From positions 210,862,001-210,926,000 of the forward strand of contig NC_091473.1 of NCBI RefSeq assembly GCF_036971445.1: a DNA stretch of 64,000 nt. The letters run 5' to 3'. The position numbers and the translations under genes are program-made. This DNA comes from Narcine bancroftii. Taxonomy: Eukaryota. Of the stretch, positions 4,242 through 46,763 are shown piece by piece. Numbering within the stretch: the first letter of the stretch is position 1; each line of letters starts with the position of its first letter. Below the pieces are notes generated by a model. That model did no database searches. It saw only the letters and a program-made list of their open reading frames with translations, and was not told the DNA's origin.

Positions 4242-4254
4242 CCCGTAACGTGGT

Positions 4255-5280: not shown

Positions 5281-5498
5281 TTCACACAGTGCTGGGAGTG
5301 TGGGTCGAGGTGCCAGCTGAAATGGTGAATGCAGGCTCCATTTTAACTTTGAGAAGAATTTGAACAAGTACATGGATGGAAGAGGTATGGAAGGAAATGG
5401 ACTGGGTACAGGTCAGTGGGACTAGGCAGAAAAATAGTTTGGCACAGACAAAAAGGGCCAAAGGGCCTGTTTCTGTACAGTAATCTTCTATGATTCTA
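5281..5498 (+). mobile_element. CR1 3'-end fragment
   Basis: Resembles the 3' end of the CR1 at 6117-6360, including the GGGCC...GGCCTGTTTC hairpin and a short TTCTA tail. Confidence 0.7.
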
Positions 5499-5882
5499 AA
5501 AGGGGTTAATGGAGATTGGAAGTCGAGGTTCATGCCATCTGGTTGGAGACTGGGGAGAATGGATATAAGGTGTCCCTCCAGTTTGCAGTGGTGTTGACGA
5601 TTGAAGTCCAAATTGTTGTTCTGATGGGGGTTTTCCCCTGCAGCTCCAGCTCTCCATGCATTTGTATAATCCCCAGTCAGCCTGCTGCATCTGTTCATTG
5701 GATTTTTCATCTAAACTGCATCAGATCTCCTGGGTCACTTCCTCTTTGTACTTGCTGGGATGGCCTGTATGGACGGATCCTGTCTGACCTGTACCTTGAT
5801 GGACATTTAATAAAAATGGCTCTGATGGGAAGATTCTGCCCTCTTTCTTAACTTCTGAAGCACCTTCTGGACGACATTATCA

Positions 5883-6116
5883 TCATGTACCTGTTGGAAA
5901 CTCATTGATCAGTGCCTTTGCTAATGTAATGCTATTTATTTGATGACCTATAGATGGCCCCCCTGTGATTTTTGCCCCGTTATTATGTCTAATCTCTACC
6001 CAGATCAATTCAACATTCTGCTCAATGGACACTAAATCATCTCTCACTATCACCCTGTTCTCATCCTGAATCAAGAGTGCTACCCCACCTCCCATAACTT
6101 CCTGCCTATCCTTTCA

Positions 6117-6154
<38 letters not shown>

Positions 6155-7265
6155 TTACAGCACGGAAACAGGCCATTAGGCCCTTCTAGTCCGCACCGAA
6201 CCAAACACCCCTTTCTAATCCCACCTCCCTGCACAATGCCCATAACCCTCCATCTTCCTCTCATCCATATACCTGTCCAACCTTTTCTTAAATAATACAA
6301 CTGACTCCGCCGCCACTATTTCTCCCGGAAGATCATTCCACACAGCTACCACTCTCTGAGTAAAGAAGTTCCCCCTCATGTTACCTCTAAACCTCTGCCC
6401 CTTAATTCTTAACTCATGTCCTCTTGTTTTAATCTTTCCTCCTCTTAACGGAAATAGTCTATCCACATCCACTCTGTCTATCCCTTTCATAATCTTAAAT
6501 ACTTCTATCAAATCCCCTCTCAACCTTCTACGCTCCAAGGAATAAAGACCCAATCTGTCCAATCTCTCCCCATACTCCAGATGCTTAAACCCAGGCAACA
6601 TTCTGGTAAACCTTCTCTGCACTCTCTCCACTCTGTTTATATCCTTCCTATAATTAGGCGACCAGAACTGCACACAGAACTCCAAATTAGGCCGCACCAA
6701 CGTCTTATACAATCTCAACATCACCTCCCAACTCCTATATTCCATGCAATGATTGATAAAGGCCAGCATACTAAAAGCCTTCTTCACCACCCTATTCACG
6801 TGAGTTTCTACCTTCAGGGAACGATGTACCGTCACTCCTAAATCTTTCTGCTCTTCTGTATTCCTCAATGCTCTCCCATTTACCACATATGTCCTATTCT
6901 GATTCTTCTTACCAAAATGAAGCACCTCACACTTATCAGCATTAAATTCCATCTGCCATTTTTCAGCCCACTTTTCTAAGCAGCCCAAATCCCTCTGCAA
7001 TCCTAGAAAACCTTCTTCATTATCCACTATTCCACCTATCTTAGTATCGTCTGCATATTTACTAATCCAATTCACCACCCCATCATCTAGATCATTAATG
7101 TATATAACGAACAACAATGGGCCCAATTACCTAAGATCCCAGGATATTTAATTCCCAATTATCTTCAACATGCAACCATATGTATGTAATAGCTATAAAC
7201 TCACACCCCTTTGGACTGATTACTAGTATTAACCTTTTCTGCAATGCTCTTGCCATTCAGATAAA
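5883..7265 (-). mobile_element. Old CR1 endonuclease-domain fragment, split by a younger CR1
   Basis: IAITxxWL...WELNI (7130-7200) continues as KDR...GGGVALLI...IWVEIR (below 6116). Confidence 0.75.
6117..7126 (-). mobile_element. Young 5'-truncated CR1 LINE with an open 303-aa RT C-terminal frame and (ATT)n tail
   Basis: GPLLFVIYINDLD, YADDTK, LERRRLRGDLIE. The tail is at 6117-6152. Confidence 0.95.
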
Positions 7266-10200
7266 TTATGGTCACACTTGTGACTGTTTTTAATGTGAAT
7301 TTTTGTCTATTGGATTGATTTTTTTCTGTCTCCACTTTGATTTTCCCCTTTTCTACCTTTTGCTTCTGTCTCTATTTTACTTCCTTCTGTCATCCTGTAG
7401 ATAATATCATTCACCTGCCATAGTCATCTCACCCTCCACAACACCACTGGCAAAAAAAATCTCCCAGGACATTGATCGCAGTCTTTTCCAAGTGTAGAAC
7501 ATCCAGACATTGTGATGGCATGGTCGGACACATGGGGGATGAAACATGGAGGTGAATGCAGAGAGGTACAGTCTGAAGAGCCCTGAGAGGGGTTGATGGA
7601 ATGTATCTGTGCTTGTAATGATAGATGGCTACCACCAGCAGGAGTTAGTCAGAGTGTGCAACATCTGGAGAATATTGCATTTTAGGAATACAGTTGCATC
7701 TTGGGTATTTTCAAGATGGATGCTTCCACATGAGATCTGACAAGTGTATGTTTGGCTTAGTTAATAAATCTAGTTGTTTTAAAAAGAACCCAAGTTTCTT
7801 TATTGTAATAAAATAAACATCACATGGTACCAAGCGTGGACAAAAATAATAAGAGTGGAAGAAACAGCCAAGTATTGCTTTGCATAGGAGTGAAAGAAAA
7901 CAAAAGAAACACACAGTGTGCATAGTAACAGTCAATATCTCCAGTGAAAATATGGAGAATTGAAAGATCCTAATCCTGTGAAATGAGTTGGAAATGGTGA
8001 CCATGATAGGAAGATGTTTAAATAAAGCTTTATCATGTACCTGCAAGCAATTGGAATCGATAGCAAACTCAGAATTTGGAAGATTGCATTGGCTTCTTAA
8101 CGTGGCGGGACCTCAAGTACTAGAGGTTTTCAAACCATTTATTTTTGCCGACACAGACAATCATAGCAAATTCAAGACTGTTCACCAAAGAAAAATTAAA
8201 CCTTCAAGATGTATGTGTTTCACTTATGCACGCAGATGCAGGGAGAGAGTTTTGATACTTTTTTAACAGACTAAAAGCAAGAACATGCAGTTGTGGATCG
8301 CTGCAAGATTCAATGATCCTTGCTCAGAATTAATGATAAGAAAATGAGAGAGAGGTTCCTGCAAGACTCAAAACTTACCTTAGCTGGAGCTACGAAGATA
8401 TGCCACACCAGTGAAATAACTCTACAGCACAAGAAAAAATTTGGTGTTAGTGTAAAAGCCAATGAAAATAAAGGCATAGTCATTACCAGAGTCTGGGCAC
8501 AGACACACACAAAATAAGATACAGGAACCAGTAAAAAGATGGAGAGACATTCAGTTGGACACAATGTGGCAGTAAACATGCACCAAAGCAATGCCCAGTT
8601 TATGGAAAAAGTGTAGCAAGTGCAAAGGGCAGAATCAGTATGCCAAGTAATGTTTTTCCAAAGGGAAATGGAACAGAAGTAAAAGAGTTCACCCTATACA
8701 ATACATTGTAGCAAAGAAGTCACTGTACACACTATAAAAGAAACAGCTCCCAGTGATACACTTTTCATGGGCATGGTGGTGCAGGAAGTGAACAGTGTCG
8801 AGCAGGATAAATGGAGTGTGTCATTGCATACAAATGGAGCAAATATTCCTTTCTATGTAGACACAAAGGCAAAGGTCAATTTGATCTGTGAGTGCGACAT
8901 CAGGGGAATGAAGATAAACTAATACATCCATGTATATCCTGTACTGCTCAAAACGTGCAATAGACAGAGCATCGACACGATAGGTGCATGTAAACTCAAG
9001 GTGAAAGTTGAAGATGAAGAGCATCACCTCGGGTTTATAGTAGTCCCAGATGGACATTATTCACTGCTGGGTGACAAAGCATGTGAAAACTTTAACCTAA
9101 TCAAGAGGGTGTATCGCATTAATAGTGACCATGTACTAAACAGCAAAGAGGAAATACTGGATCAATTTCCCAACATCTTCAAGGGCTTTGGAATTCTACC
9201 ATTCACCTATAACATACAGTTAAAAGAGGATGCACAGTAGTACATGCCTCGAGGTGGGTTCCAGCACCCTAAAAGAAAAGTTCAAGCAGGAACTCAACCG
9301 AATGATGACACTAGGGCTCATGCACAAACCATCAGAGTGGGTGAATTCAATGATGTGTGTCAAAAAGATCAGTGACCTACATGTGTGCATGGACACAAGA
9401 GACTTGAATGTCAATATAAAGAGGGAACATTATCAAATCCCAACCAGGGATGAAATTACAAGTGAGATGGCCAGTGCAAAGTTTTTCACTAAAATGGATG
9501 CATCCCAGGGCTTCTGGCAAATAAAACTGCATGATGATGGCACAAACTACTGTACATTGAATAGACCATTTGGCCAATACTTCTGTCTGAGGATGCCTTT
9601 TGGAATTTCCTCAGCTCCAGACGTGTTCCACAGGACAATTGATCACATCATCGAAGGCATAAATGGGGTATGTGTGTACATGGATGACATGATCCTATGG
9701 GGATCCACTCAAAAACAACACTACAAAAGGCTCATCAAAGTGTTACAACACTGTAATGGAGGATTAAAACCATGTGCCCAGATGCTTTTTTGCTTATGTG
9801 GAACTGACGACACTGGGGCCACACTCAGGTCACCTTAGTGTCAGAACTAGCAGATGTAATTAAACTCAGCCATGGGAATTTATCTGAAGATACACCTTTT
9901 TTTTTCCTTCGAAACTTTATTTATTAATTTTAACATATAAAGAAAGTAAGTAATACACGTACAAAAAAAATACAAAATAAAGTAATACAAGTATAATATA
10001 ACATAGTTAATACAATACCAATCTCGGCATCTCCCCCTATCGACTAAAAACTAAGACTAAGAAAAAAAAAACTATTTTTAAACCCTAAACCCCCCCTCCC
10101 CACCCCCACGATAAAGAGTGAAGAACTAATACTATTAGTATAATAATAATAAAAAATAAAAATATATATCTTAAAAAAAAGATCAATATATATATAAAAA

Positions 10201-10338
10201 CAAACAAAAAAAACAAAACAAAACAAAAAAAGGTATTAATTAAGTATTAATTATTAATCCAAAAATTTTTATTATATAAAAATATATATTAAAAAAACAA
10301 AAACAAAAAGAACTTAAATGAAAATAATTAATTCAAAC

Positions 10339-12491
10339 TTATTTAAATTGTATATAATCAATAAATGGGGTCCACTTTAACTCATAAAAAGACATCTTAT
10401 CTTGTATAGAAAATGATATTTTTTCCATAACCAAACAAAACTTCATCTCTGAATACCACTTATCTAAAGACAATACATTTCTATTCTTCCAAGTAATCGC
10501 TATACATTTCTTGGCCACTGCCAGCGCTAAATAAATAAAAGAGATCTGGTAATTATCTAATTCTAAATCAATCAACGGTTGCATATTCCCTAATAAAAAT
10601 ATATCAGGATGTAATACAATATGAAGATTATATAAATTATTAAATACAGATTGAATACCTTTCCAAAATTGTTGTAACCGATCACACAACCAAACAGCAT
10701 GTAAGAAAGTACCAGAAACCTGATCACAACGAAAACAAAGATCTGACTTACTGAAACCAAATTTTTTAAATTTTTCACTAAAATGGATGCATCCCAGGGC
10801 TTCTGGCAAATAAAACTGCATGATGATGGTACAAACTACTGTACATTTAATAGTAACCTAATTAATTAAAACTATAATTAATCATCGCCAATCTAGCATT
10901 AATCAATTTTCGAACACTATTACGGCAAATTTCAGACCAATCTTCTTCAGTTATTGTTAAATTTAAATCTTTTTCCCATTTCATTTTATCTTTATCCCAA
11001 TCTATTTTACTTTCACTTTCCAACAAAATACGATACAAACCTGATATATAACCCTTTTTTTGGAAATGAGAACATGTATTTCTCAAAATCAGTTTCAGAC
11101 AGTAAATTCATTTGACGACCGCATACCTGTTTTACAAAAGATCTTAACTGATAATACACAAATATAGAATGACCACTTATATCAAATCTCTTTTGCAATT
11201 CTACAAAAGAACAAAAATTATCTTCTAGAAAACAGTCAGATAAATTATGTATTCCTTTCTCCTCCCATTGTTTCAAAATAGTATTAGATACTGTGAAAGG
11301 AACAAGTTGATTATTATATAATGGTAATCTTCCCAACCACTTATTTTTTAATCCCATTTTGTGTAATTTACTTGTCTATAAGTTCATTAAATGTTTCAAT
11401 ATTGGTACATCATAAGTTCGTAACAAATTTTTATTCCATCGAAATAAAAATTCATTCAAATATTTTTCAGAAATAACTGCCAATTCTATCGGTGCCCAAC
11501 TAGGCGTATCTTGTGTGGCCATTAATGCGCTAAGAAATCTAAATTGAGCTGCTTCATAATAAAATTGAAAATTAGGTAGCCGTAACCCTCCAAATTGAAA
11601 ATCCCACATCAATTTTTTCAACGCCACCCTAGGAAATTTTCCTTTCCACATAAAATCCCTAATTACTTTATATAGATCCTTAAAAAATCTTTTTTGTAAA
11701 CAATAGGGAATTGATTTAAATAAATATTGTATACGAGGAAAAATATTCATTTTTATCGTATTAATTCTTCCTAATAAACCCAAAGGTAAATCTTTCCATT
11801 TAACTAAATCTGCCTTAATCTTCTTCGTTAAAGGAAGATAATTAAGTGAATAAAAATTTTGGTAGTCAGTATTAACATTAATTCCCAAATATTTAATTTG
11901 TTTCGTCCACTTCAAATTCATAATATTTCTAAACATTGAATAATCATCTTTACTAATTGATAAAATTTCACTTTTAGTCCAATTAACCTTATAACCAGAT
12001 AATTGACCATAAATCTCTAAGGAATCTTGAAGTGCTGGCAGAGAAACATCGGGATCCACCAAATACAGCAAAACATCATCCGCAAATAAATTTATTTTAT
12101 AAACTTCATTCAAGACTCTCATACCTTTGATACTATTATTCTGATGTATTAATTGTGCTAAAGGTTCAATAACGAAAGCAAACAAGGCAGGTGATAATGG
12201 ACATCCTTGTCTAGTAGATCTTGTTAAATTAAAGGATTCTGAAAGCAAACCATTAGTAACAGCTCTAGCTTTCGGACCATTATACAAAGCCCTAATCATA
12301 CCAATAAATGAGAGACCAAATGAAAACTTTTCAAGTACTTTAAATAAAAACTTACATTCTACTCTATCGAATGCCTTTTCTGCATCCAATGAAACCACCA
12401 TTGGATAATTCTTCTGAGATTTAGATCTATTTATCAAAGTAATTAATCGTAGAATATTATCCGAAGCATACCTATTTTTTATAAAACCTGT
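10339..12491 (-). pseudogene. L1 ORF2 C-terminal half (RT, C-terminal Cys-rich region), disrupted
   Basis: LDAEKAFDRVE, TRQGCPLSP, FADD, YLG, CFRC..GTFLHAVWLC. Confidence 0.93.
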
Positions 12492-12495
12492 GTGG

Positions 12496-12505
12496 CAAGA
12501 TGGCG
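12496..12505 (+). promoter_or_regulatory. YY1-type motif at the L1 5' end
   Basis: CAAGATGGCG right at the start of the 5'UTR, as in mammalian L1 internal promoters. Confidence 0.7.
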
Positions 12506-12623
12506 TAAGGATCAGACGTGCCTTCCAGTCCTCTCCTGACTCTATCTTATTGTTTTGTCTAGAAATGCCTGTTAAAATTCTTTAAAAGTTTAGATAATTT
12601 CAGTGCTGTTAATTTAACTTCGG

Positions 12624-14074
12624 ATGGTACAATTGGTGAGAAAGAGCAAAAAAACAACAACAACAGATCATCAAAAAACTACATTTTCCAAAAGTTCAAG
12701 TTTTGGAGCCTACCTACAGAAAAAACATCGGGTCTCAGCCTGAAATGGATCCCAGGAGAGAGGTACAGCTTTCGGATCTAGAGTTTAATGTTACATCGGT
12801 AGAGTCCCCTAAAGAGGGCGCCAAACAGTCTTTAGAACAAAGAGTTACTCAGGTTCGCACAAGTGCAGTAGCATCTGACGGCAATGTTATGAATGAACCA
12901 CGTGTAGTAACATCAGTTGAAGTACCGGCTGGGGAAAGGCATTTGTCAACTGTAGCGGTGGCACTGCAAACTGCACCTTTTGAGATAAAAGAACCTATAC
13001 AACTTGATAACCGGGAGAAATTAATACATTATGGACTGGGGAAAATCCCGGCCAGCGTCCTCCAGTCACTGCTGGAAAGGCTGTGGCTGGGGTTTCCACA
13101 TGCAGTTATACTACAAGGAAGGCAACTAGAATGAAGGAAGCAACAGAAGACCCTTTGGTTATGCAGAAGAAGCAGGAATCTGTTGAGCCAGAATTTCTTC
13201 CAATTGAAAAGATTCTTGTGAATCTTGAATCTAAATTATCTTATACAATGCAGGGATTATCTAAGATTATGACTGAACTTGGTACTAGGTTCAATACTCT
13301 GATGGAAATAAATTCTCAACAGATGGCTGAGTTTGGAGCTTTTAAGCTTGAAGTGAGAGATAAATTTAATTCGTGTGAAGAAGATATAGACAAAATACGA
13401 GATCAAGTTTCAGATGTGACCAAAATGGTCGAAGACTTACAAATTCAAAATAAAAATTTGGTGAAAAAGATTGATTATTTGGAAAACCAATCCAGACAGA
13501 ACAATTTAAAGATTATTGGTTTGCCGGAAGGAATGGAGGGACCAGACCCAAGAAAATTTTTTACTGAATGGATTCCGCAGGTGCTGGGTCAAGAACATTT
13601 CCCGGAAAGTATAATACTGGAACGTGCTCAGGTCAAAGTCCAAGACCTGTTTTGGTTCGTTGCTTGAATTATTACGACAGAGAAATAATTTTACGAGTGG
13701 CTATTAGAAATGCACAACAGAGAAAATCACCCTTGATGATTCAAAATAATCAAGTTTTCTTCTATGCGGATTTGAGTCAAGAAGTTATGTTCCAATGACG
13801 GGAATTCAACCCTGCTAAAGAGTTGTTGTGGAAGAAAGGTTATAAGGCAACCTTTAGATATCCAGCTGTTTTGAAGGTTTTTCAAGATGGTTACCAACCA
13901 AAGTTCTTTGATTCTCCAAAGGAAGCTATAGCATTTGCTCAAGAGCTACCAATCACTCAGTTTCAACAGAGACATAGTCCGCCGCGATCTCCAAGGAGAC
14001 AAGAGATGAAAGAAAAGAGCTGTGCTCCAAGAAGGAATGGTCGTAACGGTGACGCGGCTGTTGGAGCTGATTAA
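12624..14074 (+). pseudogene. L1 ORF1, frameshifted
   Basis: Coiled coil, ENQSRQNNLKIIGLPEG, PRPVLVRCL and FYADLS split over several frames. The start position is approximate. Confidence 0.88.
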
Positions 14075-14482
14075 AAGAAAAGTTGTTCTTTTTTTTTCTA
14101 ATGCTTTGTTTTAAAAAAAAAGGGATATTAAATCATGATGATGTTAGTTTAAGATGAAGTGAGAGTTGGGGGAGAGAACTGGTAGGCACTATTTTCTGAA
14201 AGTCATCTGCTACGTGTGAGTTATCTCACACCCATTTTTTTTGGGAGTTACCGCATTGCGTGGTTTAGACGGGAAGGGGTATTTTTAACCTCCTACCCAT
14301 TTTTTTCTTTTTTTTTCTATTATTAGATTAAAGAGTGAAGGGGGGGTTTTTGTTTATAAAAAAAAATTTAAAAAAAATTTTTTTCTCTCTTTTCCTTTTT
14401 TTCTCTTCTTTCTTTTTTTTATTGTATTAAGAGAGGGTAAGGGGGTAAGAGTTTGGGTTTTTTTTCCTAATTGTTGTAAGAC

Positions 14483-16140
14483 ATGTCGAAATTTAAATTT
14501 GCTTCTCTTAATGTTCAGGGTTTGAATAATCCTATAAAGCGTAAGAAAGTACTTGCTTATTTAAAAAAAATTAAAGTAGATGTGGCCTTTTTACAGGAAA
14601 CTCATTTGACAGATAAAGAACACTTGAAACTTAAGCGGGGCTGGGTTGGACAAGTCTTCTATTCTTCATTTAATTCAAAAGCAAAAGGAGTTGCGGTTTT
14701 GCTACATAAGAATTTACCGTTTCAATTGCAAGATGAGGAGAAAAATGGAGGAAGGCTACTTAAGTTGAATTGTATGATTTCTAATGAAGCCTGGACTTTG
14801 ATTGATGTTTATGTTCCAAATGTTGAAGATACTGCTTTTATTACAGAAATATCTTTATTATTGGGACAAGCTAATTCCAATGTGATGATTGGGGGGATTT
14901 AAATATGGTATAGAACTGTTATTGGATAAGTATCCAAAGGTAATTAATAAATCTAAGATGGTGATACATATGGCTAATATGATGAAAGATTTGAATTTAG
15001 TTGCTATTTGGTGTAGATTTAACCCTACACAGAAAGACTTTTCTTTTTATTCTTCTCGACATAATTCTTTCTCAAGACTTGATTATTTTTTAATTTCGGC
15101 ACATTTACAGGATAAGGTTATATCTGTGGATTATAAGGCGAGGTTAGTTTCGGATCATTCATTGTTATTATTGGAATATCAAAGTTCTCAAGTTACACAA
15201 CATACTTTAAGATGGAGATTTAATGCTATGTTATTACAAAAGCCAGAATTTATTGTTTATTTGAGAAAACAAATTGAGGATTTCATTGCTAATAATGTTC
15301 ACTTTGTTTCTGATCAGTTTGTTTTGTGGGACACAATGAAAGCTTTTTTACGAGGTCAAATTATCAGTTATGCATCTAAACTGAAGAAAGAGAGAGTTAG
15401 AGAAATTGAGGATTTGGAGAAGAAAATAACAATCTGTGAAAAAGAATTTCAAAAGAAAGTTACTGAATTCCAAAAGATCCAAATAACTAATTTAAAGTTG
15501 AAGTATAATAAGTTACAGTTATATCGATTTGAATGTTTGTTGAATCATTCAAAAAATAAATTTTATGAATGGGGTGAGAAAGCTCATAAAGTATTAGCTT
15601 GGCAGTTAAAAAAAGAACAGTTATCTAGGATTATACCAGCTATTAGAAATAAATCGGGTATTACTTTTAGTCAAAAAGAAATTAATGATGAATTTTGTAA
15701 TTTTTACAAAAAACTTTATTTGACTGAATGTAAAGAGATAAAAGAAGATGCAATAGACTCTTTTTTGAAAAATATTAATTTACCACAGTTATCTCAAGAA
15801 GATAGACAAGAGTTAGATAAACCTTTTACAGATAGTGAAATTGAAATGGCTATAAAAGATATGCCAAATGGAAAAGCGCCTGGTGGAGATGGCTTTTCTA
15901 TTGAGTTTTATAAGACTTTTTATGTTGATATATCTTCTTTATTTAAGATGTAATACAACAATTTTATGATACTTTTCAATTACCTGAGTCTTGTTCTAAT
16001 GCTATAATTACAGTTATACCAAAAAAAGATAAAGATCCTTTACAGGTAGCTTCTTATCGTCCTATATCTTTGTTAAATGTAGATTATAAAATAGTGGCTA
16101 AAGTTATGGCTAATAGGTTGGCTCAGTATTTACCGAAGAT
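14483..16140 (+). pseudogene. L1 ORF2 N-terminal half (APE endonuclease to RT start), frameshifted
   Basis: SLNVQGLN, LQETH, SRLDY, SDH, KAPGGDG, YRPISLLNVDYKI. Confidence 0.93.
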
Positions 16141-16974
16141 ACACCTTGAAATGGAATTCCACTGTGAGGCCCAGGGAAAGCAGTTGTCAAATACGACACT
16201 CTGAAATTGACAAATTAGTGACAACCTGTCTTGCTCGAGAAGTTTTAATAAGTCTTTGCATCTACGAGATAAACCAAGAAATCATAGCATCCTGGTTCCA
16301 TAATAATTAATCTTCTAAATTGTAGAATGGTATGTTCAGTTTTGATTTTGACTGACAAATGTTAGAAGGAGTAGGCGCATGATTAATTGTTTTTGGGGTA
16401 TATAAGCCTGTGGTCCTGCTGCTAAAATTTAGACTCTCCAAGGGGTGGGAACACCGCTTCTCAAGAAGGAAGAACAGCCAGAGTCCGAGCAACGTCCCAG
16501 TCGGGGGAGGTGAAGAAGCTGCTACCGGCACCCCGGCAACCTACTACAAGTGTGCTGTCATTGCCTCGCTTTGGCAGTTGGGAGCAGTCCAGGCGTTGTT
16601 AAGTATGATTAGTGAGGGCTTGCATATTGTAGTTTGAAATCTGCTTAAGATTTTGTAATAAAGATTTGTGTAAACTGAAGTGCTCTTGGTGTGTGTCTCT
16701 GTTTTCTTTCAGTCGCTCAAAAGCTCATCAAAGTGCTACAACACATCCAGAAGTATAAGTTAAACAGGGAAGAATGTCAGTTTGGTGCGAAGGAAATCAT
16801 CTGTCTGGGAGACAAACTGTCAGAGGCAGGTGTAGAGCCAGACATGAGCAAAGTGAAAGCAATTCTAGAAATGCATGGACCCACTGTCAAAAAAGGCATA
16901 TTGAGAGTGCTGGGAATGATCAATTTCATTGGTAAATTCAATTAAAATCTGTCTTTCAAAACAATGTTCCTATG

Positions 16975-17397
16975 GACTACAGCCATCAATGCATGGTTGG
17001 CTGGTGCAATATAATCTTTGCGCAAGCTGTACCTGATGCCACAAAAATTGAACAGTTCTAAACCTGAACCATCAGACCAATGTTTTAGATGTGGCATTGC
17101 AACAGGGATTTTGTGCACACAACTAGATCTTTATGTATTTCAGCCGGGGAAAGGTACCCTTTGTTGTGAGTGTCTTGGTCATTGTAAGTATAATTAGTTT
17201 AGCGTTAGGTGTTTAATGTCAGGGGGGAATGAGTGGTGTGGAAGGGAATAAAAACAAAACAGTCAAACTCAATGATAGGACTATAAGGAATTAACAGATA
17301 TGAAATGTAATTAATGTGGATATTGTTGATTATGATATTGATGATATTGATAAATGTTGGAGTTTGTGTGGAAAAATTACAAATAAAATATTCAAAA
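16975..17397 (+). mobile_element. L1 3'-end fragment of another subfamily
   Basis: KLYLMPQKL...DQCFRCG, then a 3'UTR ending AATAAAATATTCAAAA. Confidence 0.65.
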
Positions 17398-17421
17398 TGT
17401 CCCCAATGTACCTGAGGAAGT

Positions 17422-18019
17422 TGTGAGAAATGAGTAAAGCTAATATGAAAATATAAAAGACGAAGAAAGCTAGTATGGATATATGTGTAATGAATAAAGC
17501 CAGTATGAATAGGATAAGGATAGATAATAGAATGTAGGAAGTAAAGTTAGTCTGAATAAGATAAGGGTCTTCTAGCCTATTAGACAAGAATCAGCAAGTT
17601 CCACATATGTAATTAGTAAGCCTTAGACAGAATTAGCAAGTTCTGCATATAAGAGTTAGTAAGCCCTGAGGGGTGAGAAGGTGTGAATAAGGACAAAAGG
17701 CAGGTTTGTCAATAAGGACAATAAGGACAATGACATGATGGGACATAGACAGGATACCCCCTGGTCCTCCAAGTTCACAGAAACAGCACTTAGCAGACAG
17801 GATTGCCTAATGCCAAACTCATCCAGGAGGCAGAAGAATGTAAGGGGGAGGGTACTTCTATACTGAAATAAACTGTATAAAAGTTGGGTGAGCTCCAGTG
17901 TGTGTGTGTATTCCCAGGGTAAGGGGAAGCACCCAACTTTGCATTGTTGTATAATAAATGTTCTTTGTTCTCAATTTTTGTCTTGAGCAATTTCTGTGAA
18001 GGTACTTCTGTTTCTCATA
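17422..18019 (+). mobile_element. ERV LTR of the same family as 24976-25498, opposite orientation
   Basis: TGTGAGA...TCTCATA ends, TATAAAA near 17876 and AATAAA near 17953. Reverse-complement match to the proviral LTR. Confidence 0.93.
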
Positions 18020-18518
18020 ACTTATTTCAAGTGGAACATTAGACAGCCAGTCCTCTTCCCTTGCATAAACCACAAGGGCTTTGACCAGGTTGAACTAAGC
18101 AGTCACAACCCATCTTCCAAATGGGGTTTTACTACAAGCTTTCCATCTTGTCCTGTTCCAGTCCAGCTCCTGCTGCTGACTGTCACACTGCGGAACTAAA
18201 TGCTGTCACTCTCTCTCTCTCTCTCTCTCAGAGAAAAAGTGTGTGTTTTTCTCTCTGCTTGCAAAACCACATGACCCTGTTAGCAAGTTCCACTCCAGAC
18301 AGCTTGTGGCTCCAATGAGTCCTTTCATCTGTTGCCTTTTTTGTAAATAACAATCTATTATTAACACTCTCCAAAGCTTTTGCAAAGGCTATTGAAGCCA
18401 GACTGTCTTGCATGAGCAGAGCTTCAGTACTTTAAATACGACCTGTTTTAAAGAATGTGACCTACACTAAAAAACCTGCCCCAATTTATCTCCCAAAACA
18501 TATCTATAATCTGGCACA
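18020..18518 (-). mobile_element. Partial LTR, family X
   Basis: Homologous to 37948-38481 and ends ATAATCTGGCACA. Confidence 0.75.
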
Positions 18519-18774
18519 AAGTACACCACCAAATTGGGGAAACCGCACCATGTATTCTATCTTGACACTCTCAGACCAGACAGCATTAATGACTTCCTTG
18601 AACCATCTCCCCTGGTCATTCTCTATCCTAATCCCTCCATCTCCTTTCCTCCCACTCCACTTGCGTGTTGCCAAATGCAGTCTTCGGAAGGGTCCTGACC
18701 CATCTTGCGCCAATTGAATGGGGCGACGATTCAGCCCGTCTAACCACGCAATCACTTGGCCCCCCCAAATTGCT

Positions 18775-19697: not shown

Positions 19698-22600
19698 TCA
19701 ATGTTGTTCAGCAGCTCGTTTAATTCGTTGGATGTGGCTCCATCCCTTTTCTTTCGTTCGCACGGCAGTGTCTGTAATCAAAAGTACACAATAGGTTTTA
19801 GTTAGTGATCTTGCCATGCTTTTACATATATCCAATCATCAGGTTTAATAGAATGAATAGGATACTCCAGGGGTGAGATTTGAGCTAATAAACTCTTCTG
19901 TCGTAAGTCATACAGAGAAGTAGAAAGTCCCTGTAGATATTTAGATATGTACTGGTCATTAGCCTCAGGGATAGGGGTATCAGTGTGGAATCCCATGTAA
20001 GGAAGACCAAACATCATTTCATATGGTGAGACAGCAAGGTCCTTATGAGGAGCTGTGTGAGTCCTAATTAAAGCTAAGGGTAAGCATTTAATCCAGGAGA
20101 GGCCAGTTTCCTCATGAAGTCGAGTGAGCTGATTTTTCAAGGTCTGATTCATTCGTTCAACACAGCCTGAGCTCTGGGCGTGCCATGGGGTATGGAGCTG
20201 CCAATCTATTACCAGTATTTTACACACACCCTGGAGTACCTGAGAGGTAAAATGTGTACCTCGATCTGAGTCAATAGTTTGAATCATACCGTATCGTGGA
20301 ATCACAGACTCCAGTAGTATCCTAATAACGGTCCTGGCACGATCATTAGGGGTCGGGAAAGCCTCAACCCATCGTGTGAAATGATCTACTGTGTAAACCC
20401 CTATCTTAGGTAATTCCGTAAAATCAATTTGTATCCATTGAAATGGGCATACAGCTATATCGCGACCACCAGGCATTACCTGGCACATAACCCCGCGTAC
20501 TCTGCTTGGCTATAGTGTATATTCCCGAGCAATGCAAAGACCGTACAAAAGTATCCACAAGTGCCTGTGTTCCCCAGCGTGTCTGCTGGTGGAGCTGATC
20601 AATAATTTGCCGAGCCAAGGCTTTGTTCAGCACTTGGCGTCTTTCTGCCGTCCACCACAACTCATCAACAGTTTGACGCATTCCCTGGTCCTTCATGTAA
20701 ACCTCCTCTTCCCATGAAAAGATGGCAGTCTTTTTAACCTCAAGTGGGGTGGGCAGTAACAGCTGCATGTCTATTTTCTCCGTGAGCACAGCCTGTTTAG
20801 CAGCTGCATCTGCCTGTCTGTTCCCCTGTGCTTCAGGACTGTCACCACTTTGATGGCTTCGTACATGAACTACAGCTATTTCCTCAGGTAATGTAAGAGC
20901 ATCTAGAGATTGGACAATTAAGTTTTCATGGATCAACTTTTGTCCTTTCCCAGTTATCATTCCCTGCTCTTTCCAGATCTTCCCAAAGGTGTGCACTACA
21001 GCAAAAGCGTTCTTTGAGTCTGTGTAGATCGTGCCCACCTTGTTCTCTAGACCCTGGAGAGCTCTACGGAGGGCATACAATTCACAAGATTGTGCTGACC
21101 AATGACCGGGAAGGCGACTGGCTTTAATCACTACTCCTTCCTTCCCATCCACTACACTATACCCGCTATAGCGAGTGCCATCAATGCAATGGGAAGATCC
21201 ATCAATAAACCACCTTTCACCCTCCTGTAAAGGCTCATCGCTTAAATCCTCTCTAATTTTGGTCTGTAAATCTATTACCTCTAAATATACATGCTCTAAA
21301 TCATTTGGAGAAACCAAGAAAGCTGCTGGATTGTGTTCTTTATTCGTAATCAGGGTCAAATCATCCCTATCCATTAGGATCGCTTCATATTTTAAAATTC
21401 TAAGCCACCTTCCAGCACGTTGTAAGAGAATATTGCTGACTGTGTGAGGGGTGTGAACTATCACCGGGGCACCAAACGTAATCTTTCATCCTTCCTCAAC
21501 TAAAATAGCAGTGGCTACGATGGCTTGCACACATTCTGGCCAACCACGACAAACAGGGTCTAAAACTTTTGACAGAAAAGCAACTGGCTGTCTACAGCCT
21601 GCCCTCTCTTGTGTTAGTACTCCGGTGGCCACATCTCCTTTCGCATTGGTATATAGGTCAAATGGCTTATTTAGGTTGGGTAAAGCCAACACTGGGGCAC
21701 TAATAAGGCGCTGTTTCACAAAGTTAAAATCTTTAATCTCTTCCTCTGTCCAGACAACAGCTTCGCCCCCTAGAATCGTGAGTTTATCATAGAGAAATCT
21801 GACCAGGCTAGAATAATTTTCAATCCAGATTCGGCAGTATTCCACTAAACCAAGGAATTTCCTAAGTTCTTTGGCATTCTTGGGAGGGGGGATCTGTAGA
21901 ATACCATGCATTCTCTCTCAACTTATTTTCCTAGTTCCCTGACTTACCAGATGACCTAAGTTTTTAACTTCTGATTGAACAAATTGCAATTTGGATTTGC
22001 TCACCCTGAGACCCTTATTCTCCAGAAAATTCAAAAGTTCAACAATATACTGTTTAACTAATTCGTACGTTTTTCCCGTAATTGACAAATCATCAACATA
22101 TTGTATCAACAGACAATTCTCTCTCCGAGGAGCCTCATCTAATATTTGTTCTAAGACCTGGCCGAATAAATTTGGTGATTATGTAAAGCCCTGGGGAAGG
22201 ACCGTCCACCGGTATTGATTCTTGTGTCCAGTAAAAGGATTTTCCCATTCAAAGGGAAACATGTCTCTGCTCTCTGTTGCTAACGGACAGGTCCAGAAAG
22301 CATCTTTGAGGTCAATCACACTAAACCATTTACTATGGGGATCAATTTTACTCATTATTGTATAGGGATTAGATACAACTGGGTGACAGGTGAGAATAAT
22401 TTTGTTCAGCTCCCTCAAATCCTGCACTAATCGATAGGTACTGTCTGGTTTTTGGACAGGTAAAATTGGGGTATTAAAAGGTGACATACAAGGTTCGAGT
22501 ATACCATCTTTTACCAACTGGTCAATTACTGGCTGCAGCCCCTTTCGGCCAGCTATAGGAATTGGGTACTGCTTTCGTCTAATTATTTGCTCAGGATCTT

Positions 22601-23066
22601 TTAAAGTAACTTGCAGGGGAGGAATATCTAACACTCCTCTTTTGCCTATTTTTGCCCATACTCCAGGATTTATTAGTTCCCGATCCTCCTCGGTTAATAC
22701 ATACAATTGAACCCCAATACCTGATTCCAGTGGCCTGGTGCCGCTGGCCAATTGGTCCTGTAAATCTCAACCTAACAAACAGACTCCAGCTTGGGGAACT
22801 AGTAAAATATCCTCTGTTATTACCTTTTCTCCCATTTGAATTCTTACATCTCTTAATACAGGGACTCTAAAGTCTCTTCCTCCTACTCCTGAAACTATCA
22901 CTGTCCCTTCTATCCTAACACCCTCGGGTGGTTGTAAAATACTAGACCAGGCTGCCCCAAAATCTACTAAAAAGGTCATCTTGTCACTATGGGGTCCTAT
23001 GCTTAAATTTACCAATGGTTCTCCGTGCAGCCCCACGGTGTGTATTGACTGAGAACCGTGACCCCC
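19698..23066 (-). pseudogene. pol: ERV pro-pol (protease, RT, RNase H, integrase), frameshifted
   Basis: FLVDFGA, DLKDAF, LPQGF, YVDD, WFIDGSS, QIDFTELP, DSDRGTHF, ERMN. Confidence 0.93.
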
Positions 23067-24725
23067 CTATTCATAATCTGCTTCCATCAGGGCGTAGAAT
23101 CATGTCTCCCTGGCTCGCATTGGGCATTCTCTCTTAAAATGTCCCTCCTTTTTACAATGGTAGCAAACTAATGCTCCTGTTTCCCAATTCCTACCAGGGT
23201 CTCCATGGGGTCCTGGGAATGGTCGTCATCCCCGGAATTCTCCTCTACCCCTGCCGCTGCTCTGGTCTCTACTTCCCCATTCCTGGCGCTCCTCCCAATG
23301 TCCAGGAGCTGGCACACAGCCCCTACCCTTTCCTTGCTGTCCCTCCATGACTTCCTTGACTGCCTGCATCAAAATCTTAGCCTTTCCTTTCTGTTTTTCC
23401 TCAGACCTCTGGATGTATGCCCTTTGTGCGATCTGTAAAAGCTGTGTTATTCCCTGTTCATGCCAATTCTCAGTCTTCTGCAATTTTCTCCTGATGTCTG
23501 GGGCTGAATTAGTAACGAAGCCCGTTAATACCAATTGTTCACCCGCTGGGGATTCTATATCCAGACCCCCATATTGCTGTATGGCCGTACGCAATCTATT
23601 CAGAAATGCAGAGGAGGTCTCCTCGGGACCTTGGGGAACCTCAAATGCTTTCTTAAAATTCTGTCCCTTTGGAACAGATTCCTCGATTCCTTTTATCAGA
23701 TTAACCCTATATTCCTCCATTAATGTGTGACCATCATTAGTATTCTTATCCCAATTTGGTTTTGCCAGGGGGAATTTAAGTTCCCCAGGTATCGCCTCTG
23801 GTCCCCCTTGGTGTTCCCTATCCCAGACTCTAATCCCTGCCTGGCGAATCATTCCACATTCATCCAAAGTAAACAGAGCCCTAAAAATCGGTGTTAACTC
23901 ATCCCATGTATATATATTTGGTTGAAAAAATTGATCTAATTGTTCGGCACATCCCTGAGGATCCTCTATCAGGGAGGTCATTTCTCTCTTAAAGTTACGC
24001 ACCTCCGTACTAGTCAGGGGCTCATTTACAAAACCGAGACCCTCTCCCACGGGAACTTCCCGTAAAGGTCTCATCCAGTTAATTTCTGGCTTATAATGTC
24101 TAGGTTCCTGCTCTCCGGGAAATAAATCAAAGGGTTCTGCCCTTTCCTCCCGGAAGGTCTCACACTGTTCTGAGTCCAAGTCTCCTCTAGTACTTTGTGA
24201 ACGGGTCATCATACCACCCCTACTTTCTTCTCCTTTCTTTAGCTGTGGGGGAGGAGGGGATGGTGAAGAAGGGTAGAGCATAGGAGAGAGGCGAAAGATA
24301 GGAGCCGGTATAGGAGGAGCATAAGGTGGAGGAAGGGAATGTAACACATCCCATCCTTGTGTTTCAGGGACAAAAGGTTCCTCATCCTTCTTGTCCTTAC
24401 ATTCCTTTTCATTCAAAACCAGTTGATCAACCGATCCACTGAGCCAGCAGGCTGCACATTTTCTGCTCTCAATATTATCTCTTTGGTTTTGATAAAGCCA
24501 GATGTTCAACGCCTGACACATCCAGTCCTCATCGGATCCGAACTTTGGCCAATATACCGAATTCCCTTTTATCAGGTTTTTAACCCATTCCAGACAGCAA
24601 TACCTGACCATGGTCTATTTGTCTTTCCCGCGGATTCTCCCCGCACCCCAATCAGATAGCATTAATCCTAACGGACTTTGCTTAGTTATCTGATCATCCC
24701 GTCCTTCCTTACGACTATCTCCCAT
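23067..24725 (-). pseudogene. gag: ERV gag, frameshifted
   Basis: MG...SPLGLML start, PPPY late domain, capsid MHR-like QGPEETSSAFLNRL, CYHCKKEGHFKREC knuckle, TAG at 23069-23067. Confidence 0.9.
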
Positions 24726-25783: not shown

Positions 25784-28700
25784 TGTGATGGTACACTGCA
25801 GTACATCACTTGGACAACAGGTGGATAAGCGACATAGCTTCTGGCCTATTGACACCTGACCCCCAGGTAGGCCCAAAGGGCTCATGGTATAAAGCCAAAG
25901 TCCCAACTGTGCTCTCTCTCTCTCCCCCAGGTTTACTGTAAGCACAGCTAGCAGCCAACTAGATATTTATGTGTGGAATAAAGCTGTGTTGCCCTAAACA
26001 GTATTGTGCCTGTGTTTTCCTTTGACACAGCCTGCCACAATTTATTCCACTCACATAAATATCTACCATATACCCCAGCAACAGGCAGGTTCTCCTAGTG
26101 TCCAATAATCACTCAGTGAAAGTAAAGGGTTACTGTGTGGTGCCAATAGAAATTAAAGGGATGGAGTATAGGGACTTCTGTCTGCTGGTCCTGGAACAGT
26201 TCTGCGTCACGGTGCTGTTGGGATTAGACTTCTAGTGCCAGCTGGAGAGCCTCATGGTAGTCCACAATGGACCACAGCCCCCCTAGTGCTTATGAGGCAA
26301 AAGCATTGTGCACTATTAATCCTTAATATCGAGCCCCATCCCTTATTTACCTACCGCACCCCAGACTAAACCATAGCCATAAATATCAGGAGGTACGGCC
26401 CCAGAGACCGAACTTTTATTAAAATGAAGACACGCCGAATGCTGCAGGAGGGCATCATTGAACCCAGCAGCAGCCCGTGGCGAGCCCAAGTAGTCGTAGC
26501 AAAGACAGGAGAGAAACTATGCTTAGAGGTCGACTACAGCCAGACCATTAATGTTCACACAGCTGGATGCATACCCTCTCCCCTGGATTAGCAAAATGGT
26601 GATTACGATAGCCCAGTATAAGGTCTTCTCCACCACCAACCTCAAGGCTGCATACCACCAGGTGCCTATCAGGAGGATCGTCCGGCCCTATATGGCATTT
26701 GAAGCCAATGGCCGACTCTATCAGTTCCTCCGACTCTCTTTCAGAGTAACTAACAGGGTATCACTGTTCCAGAGGGAAATGGACTGACTGGTGGATGACT
26801 ATAGCCTGGAGGCTATTTTCCCGTACTTGGACAATGTTACCATCTGCGGGCACTCAGTGAACAACCACAACACAAACCTAAAGAGATTCCTGGAGGCAGC
26901 CAAAGAACGCAACCTGACATACAATGAAGACAAGTGTGTGTTCGGAGCTAGGTAGCTGGCTTTGTTGGGTTACGTAGTACAGAACCGGGAGGTGGGACCA
27001 GATCCAGCTTGCATGCAGGCTCTGATGGACTTACCCATCCCCAGTATGCCTAAATCACTCAAAAGATGCCTGAGCTTATTTGCCTATTACACACAGTGGA
27101 TAACCCAGTATGCAGATAGGGCCCAGCCACTGATGAGAGCAAAAGAATTCCCTCTGCCCAGTAAGGCGGTCCAGGCATTTAACAGCCTGCACGACAACTT
27201 GGCACACATCACCATGAGGGCTGTGTGGTGAATGTCTGCCAAGCTGCCTGTCTCTCCCCTCTGGCAAGCCTTGCTGTACTAACATTGGCTGTGCATTATC
27301 TCTACTGATAAGGATACTCCTGTTAAGGACACTGTATATGCATCTATTGTCTTTCATTATAGTACCACGAGTTTCTACTAATAATAGCCATGATTATTTT
27401 TTGACCACATCGTCTTGGTCTACTTCATCAACTGGCACTTCAATTTTATTAGCAGAAATGGATGCAGCCCTCAACCCAGAGAGGCTAATAATCAACCAGT
27501 CTGCCCCGAGGGCCAAAGAAATTTTCAACCACTGGATTGGATTATTTCGATTACCACATGGCTCAAAACAATGTGGTCGATGAGGCGATACAGTAGGGCC
27601 ACCTGAACTCTGCTGAGTGAGGTCCCTTTTGCCATAATGCAAGGAGCTACCACTCCGGCTATAGCTCGGGAATGTCTGACTACTTACTATGCAGCGCCAC
27701 GGATTGTGGTGCTTGCTTGACACCATTTGCTGACTAGACGCCATTTGCTGACTAGACGCCAGAATCCCGGGGAAAGAGGTGCTGCTTAAGGCACTACATT
27801 CTATTCGGTCTTTATTGTGTACTGCAACAAATCAAACACCTCATGAACGTGTTTGCCTTTCCGAGGAAATCAGGAACTGTGATGGACTGGCCAGTCTGTT
27901 TATCTGAGCCTGGAATCGTGCTGCTGAAGGGCCATGCTCGGGCATGTAAAACAGACCACCGAGTCCAACCAGTTCAGCTACTGCATACTAACCCCAACTA
28001 CGCTCATGTTAGATTCCCAGACGGGAGTACTGACCCTGTACCCCTAAGAGATCTGGCCTTGCCTGGTTCGCCCCTTCCTCACAGCCCTACTCAGAGTGAG
28101 CCTGAGAAATTGGACGAACCCCCCCTCCCAGCCTGTGACCCCTAGTCAGCTTTCAGATGACCAAGCTGAGGCTCCACTGCCTCACGCTGGCGATTCTGGA
28201 GCGGGCCCAGAAGCCATTCCTTCCCAGACTACAGACCCAGGAACTGTACCAGTTCCCAAGGTTGCAAAGGAGCCACCTGTTTTGAGACAAAGCACCAGAA
28301 TTCGTAAACAACCTGAGAGGCTGACATATTCATAAAACATCTCATTATATTTCAATTGCTTGCTAGATACTGACATATTTTGGCTATTAGAGTATCTCAA
28401 GGCCAAACATGGTATCCATGTATCGCTTGCTTCAGTCTTTCCTAGCAGCTGTCCTTTTGATTTTAACCCTTCTTCTGCTGGGGAGACTGTGGTGAATGTC
28501 TGCCAAGCTGCCTGTCTCCCCCCTCTGGGGAGCCTTGCTGTACTAACATTGGCTGTGAATTATCTCTACTGTTAAGGACACTCCCCTTGGGTATAACTGT
28601 GTATGCACCAATTGTCATTATTGTACCATGAGTTTCTGCTAATAAAACCCATGATTATTGTTTGACCACATCATCTTTGTCTACTTCATCAACTGGCACT

Positions 28701-30122
28701 TCAGGCTGTAGACGAAACACTCCCCTTCCACCCTGAACCAGGAGGGACGCCCGGTGGCTTTCTTTTCTCAAATGCTGCAGGGCTTAGAAACCATGCACTT
28801 AGCAGTGGAGATAGAGGCCCAGGCCATAGTGGAGGCAGTAAGGCACTGGAAGCACTACCTGGTGGGCAGCCATTTTACACTGGTCACAGACCAACAGTCT
28901 GTAGCTTTCATGTTTGACAACCAGAACAAGGGGAAAATTAAGAATGATAAAATGTTACGTTGGATGATTGAACTGTCTACTTACTCGTATGACATCTGAA
29001 TCCGCCCGCTAAGTTAAATGAACCCCCGGATGCACTGTCCAGGGATGCTTGCATGACCACTCAACACATATCCCAGCTGCAGAACATTCACAGCGAGCTG
29101 GGGCACCCCAGAGTGACCAGGATGTTTCACTTCATTAAGAACGCCAACCTGCCATTCTCGGCAGAAGTGGTAAGGACTACTACAAAGGGTTGTCGTATAT
29201 GTGTGGAATGCAAACCACAGTTCTACCGCCCACCTGAGGCAGACCTTATCAAATCCACCTGGCCATTAGAGCATTTCAGTATTGATTTTAAAGGCCCCCT
29301 CCCGTCCACCAATAACAACTGTTACTTCCTCACTGTGATAGATAAGTTCTCCTGGTTCCCCTTCGCCATCCCCTGCGCAGATGTGTCCACGGCAGCAGTA
29401 ATAATGTGCCTGAAACCCATCTTCATCATGTGTGGATACCCTAACTATATCCACACAGGGGGGGGGGGGGGGGGGGAAAGCCTTCATGAGTGCCGAGCTG
29501 CAGCAATACTTCTGAGAGAGGGGGATTGCTACCAGCCGCACCACAAGCTACAACCCCCAAGGGAATGGGCAAGTAGAGAGGGAGAATGGTACCATTTGGA
29601 AGATGGTCCTTCTGGTATTAAAGTCAAAGGACCTCCCTGGTATCCAGGTGGCAGGAAGTGTTACCCAAGACGTTACACGTGATATGCTTGTTATTGTGTA
29701 CTGCCATAAACATGACCGCACATGACAGAATTTTCTCTTTTACAAAGAAATCGACCCTGAGCTCGGAGATGACACATTGGATGATCTCACTGGGCCCGGT
29801 GCTGATCAAGAAACATGGCCCAGTGCTGATCAAGAAACATGGCACGAGATGGACCCTCTGGTCGAGAAGGGAGAGCTGATCCACGCAAACCAAAACTATG
29901 CATTTGTGACTTTCCCTGTGTGAGCAATACCAGGACGTTTTAAAGGGGGTGAATGTGATGATACACTGTAGTACATCACTCGGCCAACAGGTTGCCTTGA
30001 GACACAGCACCCGATCTAATGACATTCGACCACCAGGTGGGCCCAGAGGGCCCATGGTATAAAGCCTAGGTCTTGACCATGTGCTCGCTCTCTCTCTCTC
30101 CCCCGGGATCTCTGTAAGGACA
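25784..30122 (+). mobile_element. Gypsy element Y, gag-deleted; LTRs 25784-26039 and 29954 to the gap
   Basis: Related LTRs, RT (QLDAYPLP, YLDN), RNase H, integrase (SIDFKGPLP) and PPT AAAGGGGGTGAA. Confidence 0.88.
27224..28703 (+). mobile_element. Internally deleted Gypsy element Z nested in Y; LTRs 27224-27442 and 28488-28703
   Basis: TG...CA LTRs and 5-bp TSD GGCTG (27219-27223, 28704-28708). The gag start MDAALNPERL is joined to an integrase tail. Confidence 0.93.
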
Positions 30123-45097: not shown

Positions 45098-46032
45098 GGT
45101 CCCACTCACTGAAGTTGCTGATCAATGACAGCCCCACTGCTGCCGACCCCTTTTATACACAGCGCCCCGACCTGGCTGAGGACGCGCAGTGAAGGGGAGG
45201 GGAGGAGACAGAGTCAGAGTGACAGACAGAGCAGAGAGCGGCCTCTCATCTTCCGCCCCGGCCCCGGAAATCGCTAATTTCCAAACGTTATTAGCAGAAC
45301 AGAAACAGCGACCGCGAACAACACACACGGGGTTACATTTTTTCCGATTTTCTGAAATACGAAATCTTTAAATAAGCACCGTGATATTCCCGCTGAAGCT
45401 CTGCCCCTTCGTTAACATAGGAAGGAGTCAAGGGTACATTAGAATTAGGAGCAGGATACTGCTCGGCTTTCAATAAGAGACTTGATCTGGACTTGGACTC
45501 GGCACCATTTCCCGTAACACTTAATCCTCTCTTCAGCAATCTCTGACTCTTGGAAGCATTTAATGAGGTAGCTTCACTGGGCAGAGAATTCTGCGGATTC
45601 ACTTCCCTCAGGGAGAAGGCATTTCCTCATCTCCATCTCAAATCTACTCCCTGGATCGTCACTACGTGCCTGCCAGATCCCATCTCCTTCCATTTCACCC
45701 CTGGAGCCTGTCTCCTGTCCCCACACCTCCCCTTCACGGTGAACAATCACCTTAACCCGGTTGATATGGGAAACCTCCCTGATTTGGATGCAGACACTTA
45801 GGTCCCCACCTCACTCTCTCCCCCAGAATCTGCCTGAAGGAATTGTTGATGAACAGAGACAGGGGCCGATCACATCCCCAGACCGACTGAGGCCGGTCCC
45901 AGACACCCCGTTCTTGGAGTTTTGTTTGGACACTGGTGCAGATAATGTGGTGGAGTTACCGGGGCTTGACGTGAATGATTCCCCACTGGAATGTGAACGC
46001 GGTGTTGGGACAGGAGTGATGTGACTGGGGAG

Positions 46033-46073
46033 CAGCTCTTCACTGAGGGATGTGGGTGGCTCTGAGAAGAGCC
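46033..46073 (-). terminator. H1 stem-loop and HDE, copy 2
   Basis: Identical to 633-673. Confidence 0.95.
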
Positions 46074-46109
46074 GTTGGGGTCAGGACTTTACACATTGAG
46101 CTTTTTATT

Positions 46110-46763
46110 TCACTTCTTGGCCGCTGCCTTGGGTTTAGATTTTGGCCGGGCTCTGGATTTTGCAACTTTTTTGGTTGCCTTCACCTTGGTGACTTTGGCC
46201 TTTGGTGGGCTCTTGAGCTTCTTCGTGGTCGCCTTCTTGGCCACTGGCTTCTTGGCCGCCGTCTTTTTAGCCGCTGGCTTCTTGGCGCCGTGTTTCTTGC
46301 TGGGAGATTTCTTGGCCGCGGGTTTCTTGGAGGAAGATTTCTTGGTGACTGGTCTTTTGGCCGAAGATTTCTTTGCCACCGACTTCCTGGACTTCGACGC
46401 CGTGGCCGCTGGTTTCTTCGCTTTCTTTGCCAATGTCACTGTCCTTTCTTTCTTCCCGGCCTTGAAGTGACCCGACAAGCCCGAGCCTTTGCATTGAACC
46501 AGGAGGCCGCTGTCCAATTTCCTCTTAATGCTCGTCTTGATGTGCGAGGCGGACTTGCGCACATCGACGCCGCCTGCGGACAGAGCCTTCTTTATGGCGA
46601 AGTAGGACATCCCCCCGCGCTCACGGCAATCCGCCACAATCTGGTCGATCTGATCGCCCAGCTTAGGACCGGCTGGTTTGGGCCGGGCAGCCGCCTTCTT
46701 CTTCTTGGGAGCCTTGGTCTGGGCGCCAGGAGTGACAGGAGGAGCCGCTGCGGTCTCGGTCAT
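46110..46763 (-). CDS. H1: Linker histone H1, copy 2
   Basis: Identical translation to 710-1363. Confidence 0.95.
   Translation of the reverse strand: MTETAAAPPVTPGAQTKAPKKKKAAARPKPAGPKLGDQIDQIVADCRERGGMSYFAIKKALSAGGVDVRKSASHIKTSIKRKLDSGLLVQCKGSGLSGHFKAGKKERTVTLAKKAKKPAATASKSRKSVAKKSSAKRPVTKKSSSKKPAAKKSPSKKHGAKKPAAKKTAAKKPVAKKATTKKLKSPPKAKVTKVKATKKVAKSRARPKSKPKAAAKK

Follow-up and report, generated by a model that had tools for sequence, protein, structure and literature searches.

Locus and window element

A stretch of 64,000 nt from Narcine bancroftii (contig NC_091473.1), hereafter the window, contains a Gypsy element that, judged by its sequence, is a decayed and dead member of the Cigr-1 type, without a chromodomain and outside Tf1/sushi (Table 1). 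The ends of its 5' long terminal repeat (LTR) were set by family copies with 5-bp target-site duplications (TSDs), and they agree with the earlier note on this DNA, which had read the LTR as ending in GCCACA at 26039 without a following TGG; the next base is an A. The TATAAA that it had placed near 25888 is also present, as part of TATAAAG.

Behind the single spacer base, the primer-binding site (PBS) at 26041–26065 is the reverse complement of 25960–25982 with a 2-nt bulge. RNA folding of the locus, a check proposed in the earlier note, returns this stem (z = -3.92), and 0 of 200 shuffles are equally stable. The pairing, the bulge and the AATAAA end are all as first described, but neither the bulge nor the full length holds for the family. 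The bulge is damage to the window copy, as the family LTRs have both extra bases, and the stem in the 12 PBS-bearing 5' LTRs found among 28 loci of the family is unbroken and 19–22 bp long, with the gag ATG following closely. The last three pairs (26063–26065) fall outside this norm and lie where ~1.35 kb of gag has been deleted; this deletion is private to the window copy and begins immediately past the 25-nt complement. The PBS of this copy is likely a short overrun, of 3 nt only.

The two LTRs of the window element are 76% alike (25784–25924 versus 29954–30094), and the 5' LTR is closer to other family copies (80–86%). Given this divergence, the sequences suggest that the element may be a recombinant. 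The RT active site at 26824–26835 reads YLDN, with N at the second aspartate, as in 91 of 120 homologues, including those of the clade of a young family.

Table 1. Features of the window element and of the element nested in it
Feature	Positions	Strand	Basis or remark
5' LTR (TG...CA, 256 nt)	25784..26039	+	ends GCCACA; 76% repeat at 29954
TATA box TATAAAG	25888..25894	+	sequence; also present in 3' LTR
Predicted transcription start, pyrimidine tract ~30 nt past TATA; putative 5' end of primer RNA	25915..25921	+	analogy with the positions at which overruns end in families F and B
Left arm of stem, putative 3' end of self-primer	25960..25982	+	AATAAA at 25977–25982 closes the arm; 2-nt deletion in window copy
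Loop, 57 nt, putative template for minus-strand strong-stop DNA	25983..26039	+	sequence; 30–65 nt across 25 families
One spacer base (A) 3' of LTR end	26040..26040	+	A or T in 25/25 families
Self-complementary PBS	26041..26065	+	family norm 26041–26059/62; 26063–26065 a likely overrun at the deletion junction
Protease-RT-RNase H remnant, stops and frameshifts, RT motif YLDN	26066..27223	+	~1.35 kb of gag deleted ahead of remnant
Nested, internally deleted element of a second Cigr family	27224..28703	+	LTRs 27224–27442 and 28488–28703; TSD GGCTG
PBS of nested element	27444..27458	+	complementary to own LTR: 27372–27386 with 2 mismatches, 28633–28647 perfect
RNase H end and integrase remnant, without chromodomain	28709..29941	+	
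Polypurine tract (PPT)	29942..29953	+	sequence; relatives carry the same motif ahead of their 3' LTRs
3' LTR	29954..30122	+	assembly N gap from 30123, before the stem region

The nested element has the same LTR as the full-length element L170. Its PBS differs in sequence from that of the element into which it is inserted, yet pairs with its own LTR likewise.

Several neighbours deserve mention. A 45.4-kb tandem duplication joins window positions 1–18600 and 45401–64000, which are 100% identical where compared; it is either a recent duplication or an assembly artefact. The duplicated segment includes an open reading frame (ORF) labelled by eye as histone-H1-like (710–1648, minus strand). At 19802–24614, also on the minus strand, gag and RNase H-integrase remnant frames look by eye like an endogenous retrovirus. 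A Mag-like Gypsy RT lies at 9224–9838, and its family, which has TGG primer sites, was used as a control.

Placement in the Cigr-1 clade

The closest named proteins come first from sharks and rays, then from corals, an insect and an isopod. The window remnants and the 1425-aa ORF of a relative show the Gypsy order PR-RT-RH-IN within one compact ORF, and the single ORF, this order and a length of 4–5 kb are shared with the Cigr-1 clade. A chromodomain, which the earlier note had failed to see, was not found in the window integrase remnant, in three full-length relatives or in the Pfam lists of the 120 homologues.

To our knowledge, self-priming has been proven only for fission-yeast Tf1, and it is counted as a Tf1/sushi trait. 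In the RT tree, a 33-row clade with support of 99/98 unites the 27 self-paired rows with six named homologues. It is separate from two Mag-like rows, four other rows with TGG sites and one row, long-branched and presumably sushi-like by its motifs, all of the same genome; the long branches meet at the root. Two of the four Mag-like rows and an endogenous retrovirus row had been dropped for lack of alignment. The tree, another check suggested at the outset, sets the clade outside Tf1/sushi and excludes the sushi-like row from it. A search of the same genome for sushi elements gave one RT and no LTRs, and a scan of viral contigs gave no relative. Cigr elements also occur within bacterial metagenome-assembled genome (MAG) records (L163–L169), likely as contaminating host DNA.

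We use the name Cigr-1 clade for the Ty3/Gypsy group of Ciona Cigr-1 (LTR/Gypsy-Cigr in RepeatMasker), which is recognised as a clade present in tunicates, molluscs and annelids according to the available text of PMC6238403 and PMC8556966. By eye, RT motifs PWRAQV, DYSQT.N.FT.LDAYPLP and PFGVTNG, as well as integrase motifs, are common to the window clade and the Cigr1 rows in the available supplement of PMC8220671, while the TF1 row of that alignment does not have them. Most members here carry YLDN and the Cigr1 rows YLDD. As Cigr1 itself is absent from the RT tree, the assignment to Cigr1 is made at the level of motifs.

Pairing of the PBS with the element's own LTR across families

In 25 related families, from sharks and rays to marine invertebrate contigs (L169 excluded), a single base separates the LTR end from an 11–22-nt reverse complement of the family's own LTR. 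The stem is unbulged and 11–22 bp long and the loop spans 30–65 nt; sequences differ among families and the pairing is kept, which is the compensatory change that the earlier note had proposed to look for. At most of positions 5–12 the families use three or four kinds of base pair, counts that show variety rather than significance, as the arms were picked for pairing. A further comparison comes from 11 families with independently fixed LTR ends, set by LTR pair plus TSD or, for family A, that of the window element, by family alignment. All 11 have an own-LTR match of 11–22 nt, which 0 of 500 shuffles reach in each. Against the LTRs of other families the PBS matches 4–11 nt, and four Mag-like controls with TGG sites match 3–8 nt. 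The window copy itself scores an exact run of only 10 (1/500 shuffles) because of its bulge.

A blind inverted-repeat scan was also performed on 49 metagenome or MAG loci with enough upstream DNA. A repeat of at least 10 bp is found in 32, with the right arm directly behind CA in 27 of these; equal control stretches have a 10–11-bp repeat in 5 of 44 cases. The other 17 loci show no stem; many have no detectable LTR pair, and one, L131, has an LTR pair and no stem.

The pairing is found in recently active elements. A young family with 99–100% identical LTRs and open frames carries the self-complementary PBS; these are 240-nt LTRs (L173–L181), with many open frames of 1400–1500 codons. Contigs of runs guessed to be RNA span this family end to end, and the contig sets of four such runs cover the families and show no transcript starts or ends. 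One contig ending 12 nt past AATAAA was not used as evidence.

A PBS starting with TGG occurs in 0 of 25 families, and both the Mag-like and a second control clade in the same genome do have TGG. Could a host RNA, a tRNA fragment or other small RNA, nevertheless be the primer, the LTR match being secondary? A loose common motif in the arm, with G at position -10 in 23 of 25 families although adjacent positions vary, would fit such a primer. Against it, at least six families in the Narcine bancroftii genome have different PBS sequences, each matching its own LTR only, no PBS starts with TGG, and an Rfam search of the locus gives no hit above chance (a single chance miRNA match, E 6.1). We regard a host primer as extremely unlikely. 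ARAGORN finds no tRNA within the 64-kb window.

Two further candidates for conserved signals were considered. A second conserved helix or hairpin starting right behind the arm appeared likely by eye and was not above shuffles, in a test that included two mis-picked rows (L057 and L169). An RC dinucleotide past the arm, present in 24 of 25 families, was not taken as a cut signal because AATAAA-RC is common in LTRs.

The stem and the poly(A) signal

The stem ends on AATAAA or ATTAAA in 17 of 25 families. This overlap, together with a partner strand that exists at the 5' LTR only, favours a reading in which the stem mainly hides the 5' poly(A) signal, with priming achieved otherwise. The signal is missing at the stem end in the remaining 8 families, however, three of which have it unpaired in the loop, so that masking is not the universal purpose of the stem. 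Moreover, the right arm begins one base past the LTR end in 25 of 25 families, exactly where a primer must sit, and no alternative primer site is seen. Masking as the main role is very unlikely; masking of the 5' signal as a by-product of the pairing in the 17 families is plausible.

Insertions that overrun the PBS

If a primer made of LTR RNA reached upstream of the stem, plus-strand synthesis would at times continue past the PBS into additional LTR complement. Family A gave four such matches: the window copy twice, a palindrome that reaches LTR base 1 and has a TSD, and a match that runs past the PPT into integrase. The young family F gave 261 overrun junctions versus 763 normal ones, and 90 overrun loci were examined.

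Class I insertions comprise a full LTR, the overrun and then a jump; 15 of 18 family-F loci rejoin the element, 13 of them independent. Among these 13, eight end at LTR 136–143, four at 148–155 and one further up. Microhomology at the junctions is 0–6 nt, and all eight are compatible with a stop at about 138–143. Family F has a TATA-like TTAAAG at LTR 109 and an initiator-like TCATTC at 139–144, which places 8 of the 13 stops ~30 nt past the TATA-like box. The binomial probability of finding 8 ends of 16 within 9 nt out of 172 is 5e-7; this window, like the interval 136–143, was chosen after seeing the data. All seven class I loci with both ends visible have a TSD; the rearrangement therefore preceded integration. 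For family B, sampled as 70 loci of 160 matches, positions 86–90 were written down in advance, and ends at 86, 87 and 87 account for 3 of the 13 away from base 1 (p = 0.015). One of these three rejoins the element and one lies in a more complex rearrangement. The other family B ends scatter; five (17, 25, 52 and others), as well as the family-F locus L237, fall elsewhere. Overruns that stop ~30 nt past the TATA-like box in two families fit a primer of ~50–60 nt.

These end points bear on whether the plain Tf1 mechanism, in which the transcript begins at the first base of the stem, would suffice. The geometry is the same, the stem is of similar length, and many invertebrate LTRs have no clear TATA. 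Yet in two families the overruns end 35–45 nt before the stem is reached, and TATA-like boxes lie ~70 nt upstream of it, which makes the plain Tf1 scheme very unlikely. Other causes of the class I ends can be named. Predicted DNA hairpins overlap the end zones (around 129–152 in family F; weakly, near 86–99, in family B) and are a possible alternative cause of pausing there, and a template switch onto the uncut 5' end of the RNA could give the same ends.

Class II insertions are palindromes that end at LTR base 1, the commonest overrun product: to within a few bases, this is the end point of about 57 rows out of 91 and about 50 out of 72. A 5-bp TSD, with 4 or 5 of 5 bases matching, is found in 17 of 20 palindromes in each of two families, and they were therefore inserted by integrase. 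Among L206–L295 and L296–L365 are palindromes in which the LTR and an A are followed by a reversed LTR that reaches base 1, both ends being U3. This class is best read as a fold-back of plus-strand DNA and leaves the identity of the primer unspecified. A stem devoted to masking, with the odd insertions as DNA fold-backs, would account for the many overruns that end at base 1; fold-back alone, however, leaves the stops ~30 nt past TATA in two families unexplained.

Class III insertions consist of a reversed 3' part of the element, then a U5 copy that begins at 182–202 in 26 of 28 loci (two loci share a junction), and then the overrun. These starts, around the predicted cut at 192/193, fit strong-stop DNA or a free loop ending near 193. 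They also bear on a primer taken from the 3' end of the genomic RNA, in which the 3' LTR copy of the segment, trimmed to AATAAA, would pair with the PBS. The segment is present in both R copies, and L205 and L238 cross U3 and the PPT into integrase, so that a 3'-side template was copied there. But only 1 of the 90 family-F loci passes the PPT, compared with eight independent stops at the predicted start; the U5 copies from 182–202 fit a 5' template ending near 193; and a 3'-end primer requires removal of the poly(A) tail. This source of the primer is very unlikely, though slightly less so than the other alternatives.

Two single cases stand apart. In L178, PBS position 15 is the base that the LTR would template, as if copying had gone one base further into the primer. 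L263 has an LTR without 142–190, almost exactly the predicted primer segment.

A model for priming

Taken together, the locus is that of a decayed Cigr-1-clade Gypsy element whose pairing between PBS and own LTR is kept clade-wide, and we consider it likely that in this clade minus-strand DNA is primed by the 5' portion of the element's own RNA and not by a tRNA. The tRNA-independent self-priming suggested by the earlier note thus gains support from compensation across 25 families, from placement outside Tf1/sushi and from overruns that end at the predicted start upstream of the stem.

From the observed geometry, compensation, clade structure and overrun products we infer a start site, a cut and a primer. 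Transcription would start ~30 nt past the TATA-like box, 35–45 nt upstream of the paired segment, and the R segment of the RNA would fold onto the PBS. Cleavage directly 3' of the left arm (past AATAAA in the window family), probably by the element's own RNase H as in Tf1, would yield a ~50–60-nt primer that begins at the start site, ends with AATAAA and is paired only by its last 11–22 nt, from which RT would then copy the loop. Poly(A) sites generally lie 10–30 nt past AATAAA, and this interval would give the homology for the first jump. Plus-strand synthesis would copy the primer and rebuild the PBS, keeping both arms matched, a step that the fossil insertions support. An overrunning plus strand would stop at the 5' end of the primer and then jump wrongly, or fold back onto the LTR. 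Normally the 5' portion of the primer, which is unpaired, would have to be removed, perhaps, as a speculation, by RNase H after the minus strand copies R, with overruns resulting where this fails.

Comparison with known systems

Self-priming has been demonstrated experimentally for Tf1, Tf2 and Tj1, which are Tf1/sushi chromoviruses (available text of PMC4600332, PMC5341516 and bioRxiv 10.1101/2022.12.06.519325). As in the Cigr elements, a PBS immediately downstream of the 5' LTR is complementary to part of the LTR, and the primer is presumably a piece cut out of the element's RNA. The Cigr elements differ in forming a separate RT clade without a chromodomain, in a paired segment that lies 35–45 nt inside the predicted transcript, whereas the Tf1 primer pairs from its first base, and in usually covering the poly(A) signal with that segment, unlike Tf1/sushi as described there. 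No counterpart of the flanking helices of the Tf1 'pretzel' was found for Cigr, the helix right behind the arm not being above shuffles. The window element likely works like Tf1 yet is not a Tf1/sushi member.

In plants, Tcn1 (gypsy) and TAR/Houba/Osr-1 (copia) are predicted self-primers, likewise from PBS-LTR complementarity of at least 10 nt; they belong to other lineages, and the available text of PMC6317226 gives neither primer-length evidence nor a poly(A) overlap. In the fungal element GalEa a tRNA PBS is replaced by conserved pairing, as here, but both arms lie downstream of the LTR, whereas one Cigr arm lies inside it (available text of PMC5445492). GalEa and bivalve TRIMs, as far as these sources describe them, do without a PBS in other ways, and the available parts of PMC3601003, PMC3670739 and PMC11042837 provide context only.

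The poly(A) overlap has a parallel in HIV-1. Its 5' poly(A) hairpin holds AAUAAA in a helix at the 5' end that is local to R and is present at both ends; in Cigr, by contrast, the signal pairs with a strand outside the LTR that also serves as the PBS.

What appears to be new here is the pairing of PBS and own LTR as a trait of the whole Cigr clade; self-priming itself is already known from Tf1. We found no report of self-priming for Cigr in the literature, and Repbase or GyDB entries or the original Cigr-1 paper may already note the PBS.

Implications

A wider proposal, which we advance tentatively and would not yet favour, is that Cigr represents an independent, animal-wide invention of self-priming. 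One helix would hide the 5' poly(A) signal for read-through, and a cut exactly behind the signal would free a long capped primer, leaving 10–30 nt to the poly(A) site for the jump. The by-product palindromes with two U3 ends would then be a new class of integrase-made inverted repeats, hundreds per family.

The mis-copied insertions record primer length, give exact predictions of start and cut sites, and offer a general means of deducing the mode of priming from assembled genomes. A self-complementary PBS would also explain why PBS-based finders can miss Cigr elements. If they do self-prime, Cigr elements would be freed from control by tRNA fragments. Self-priming with an internal arm and a long primer is likely in this second Gypsy clade of animals, which was recently active in the genome of a vertebrate, and would show that independence from tRNA arose again.
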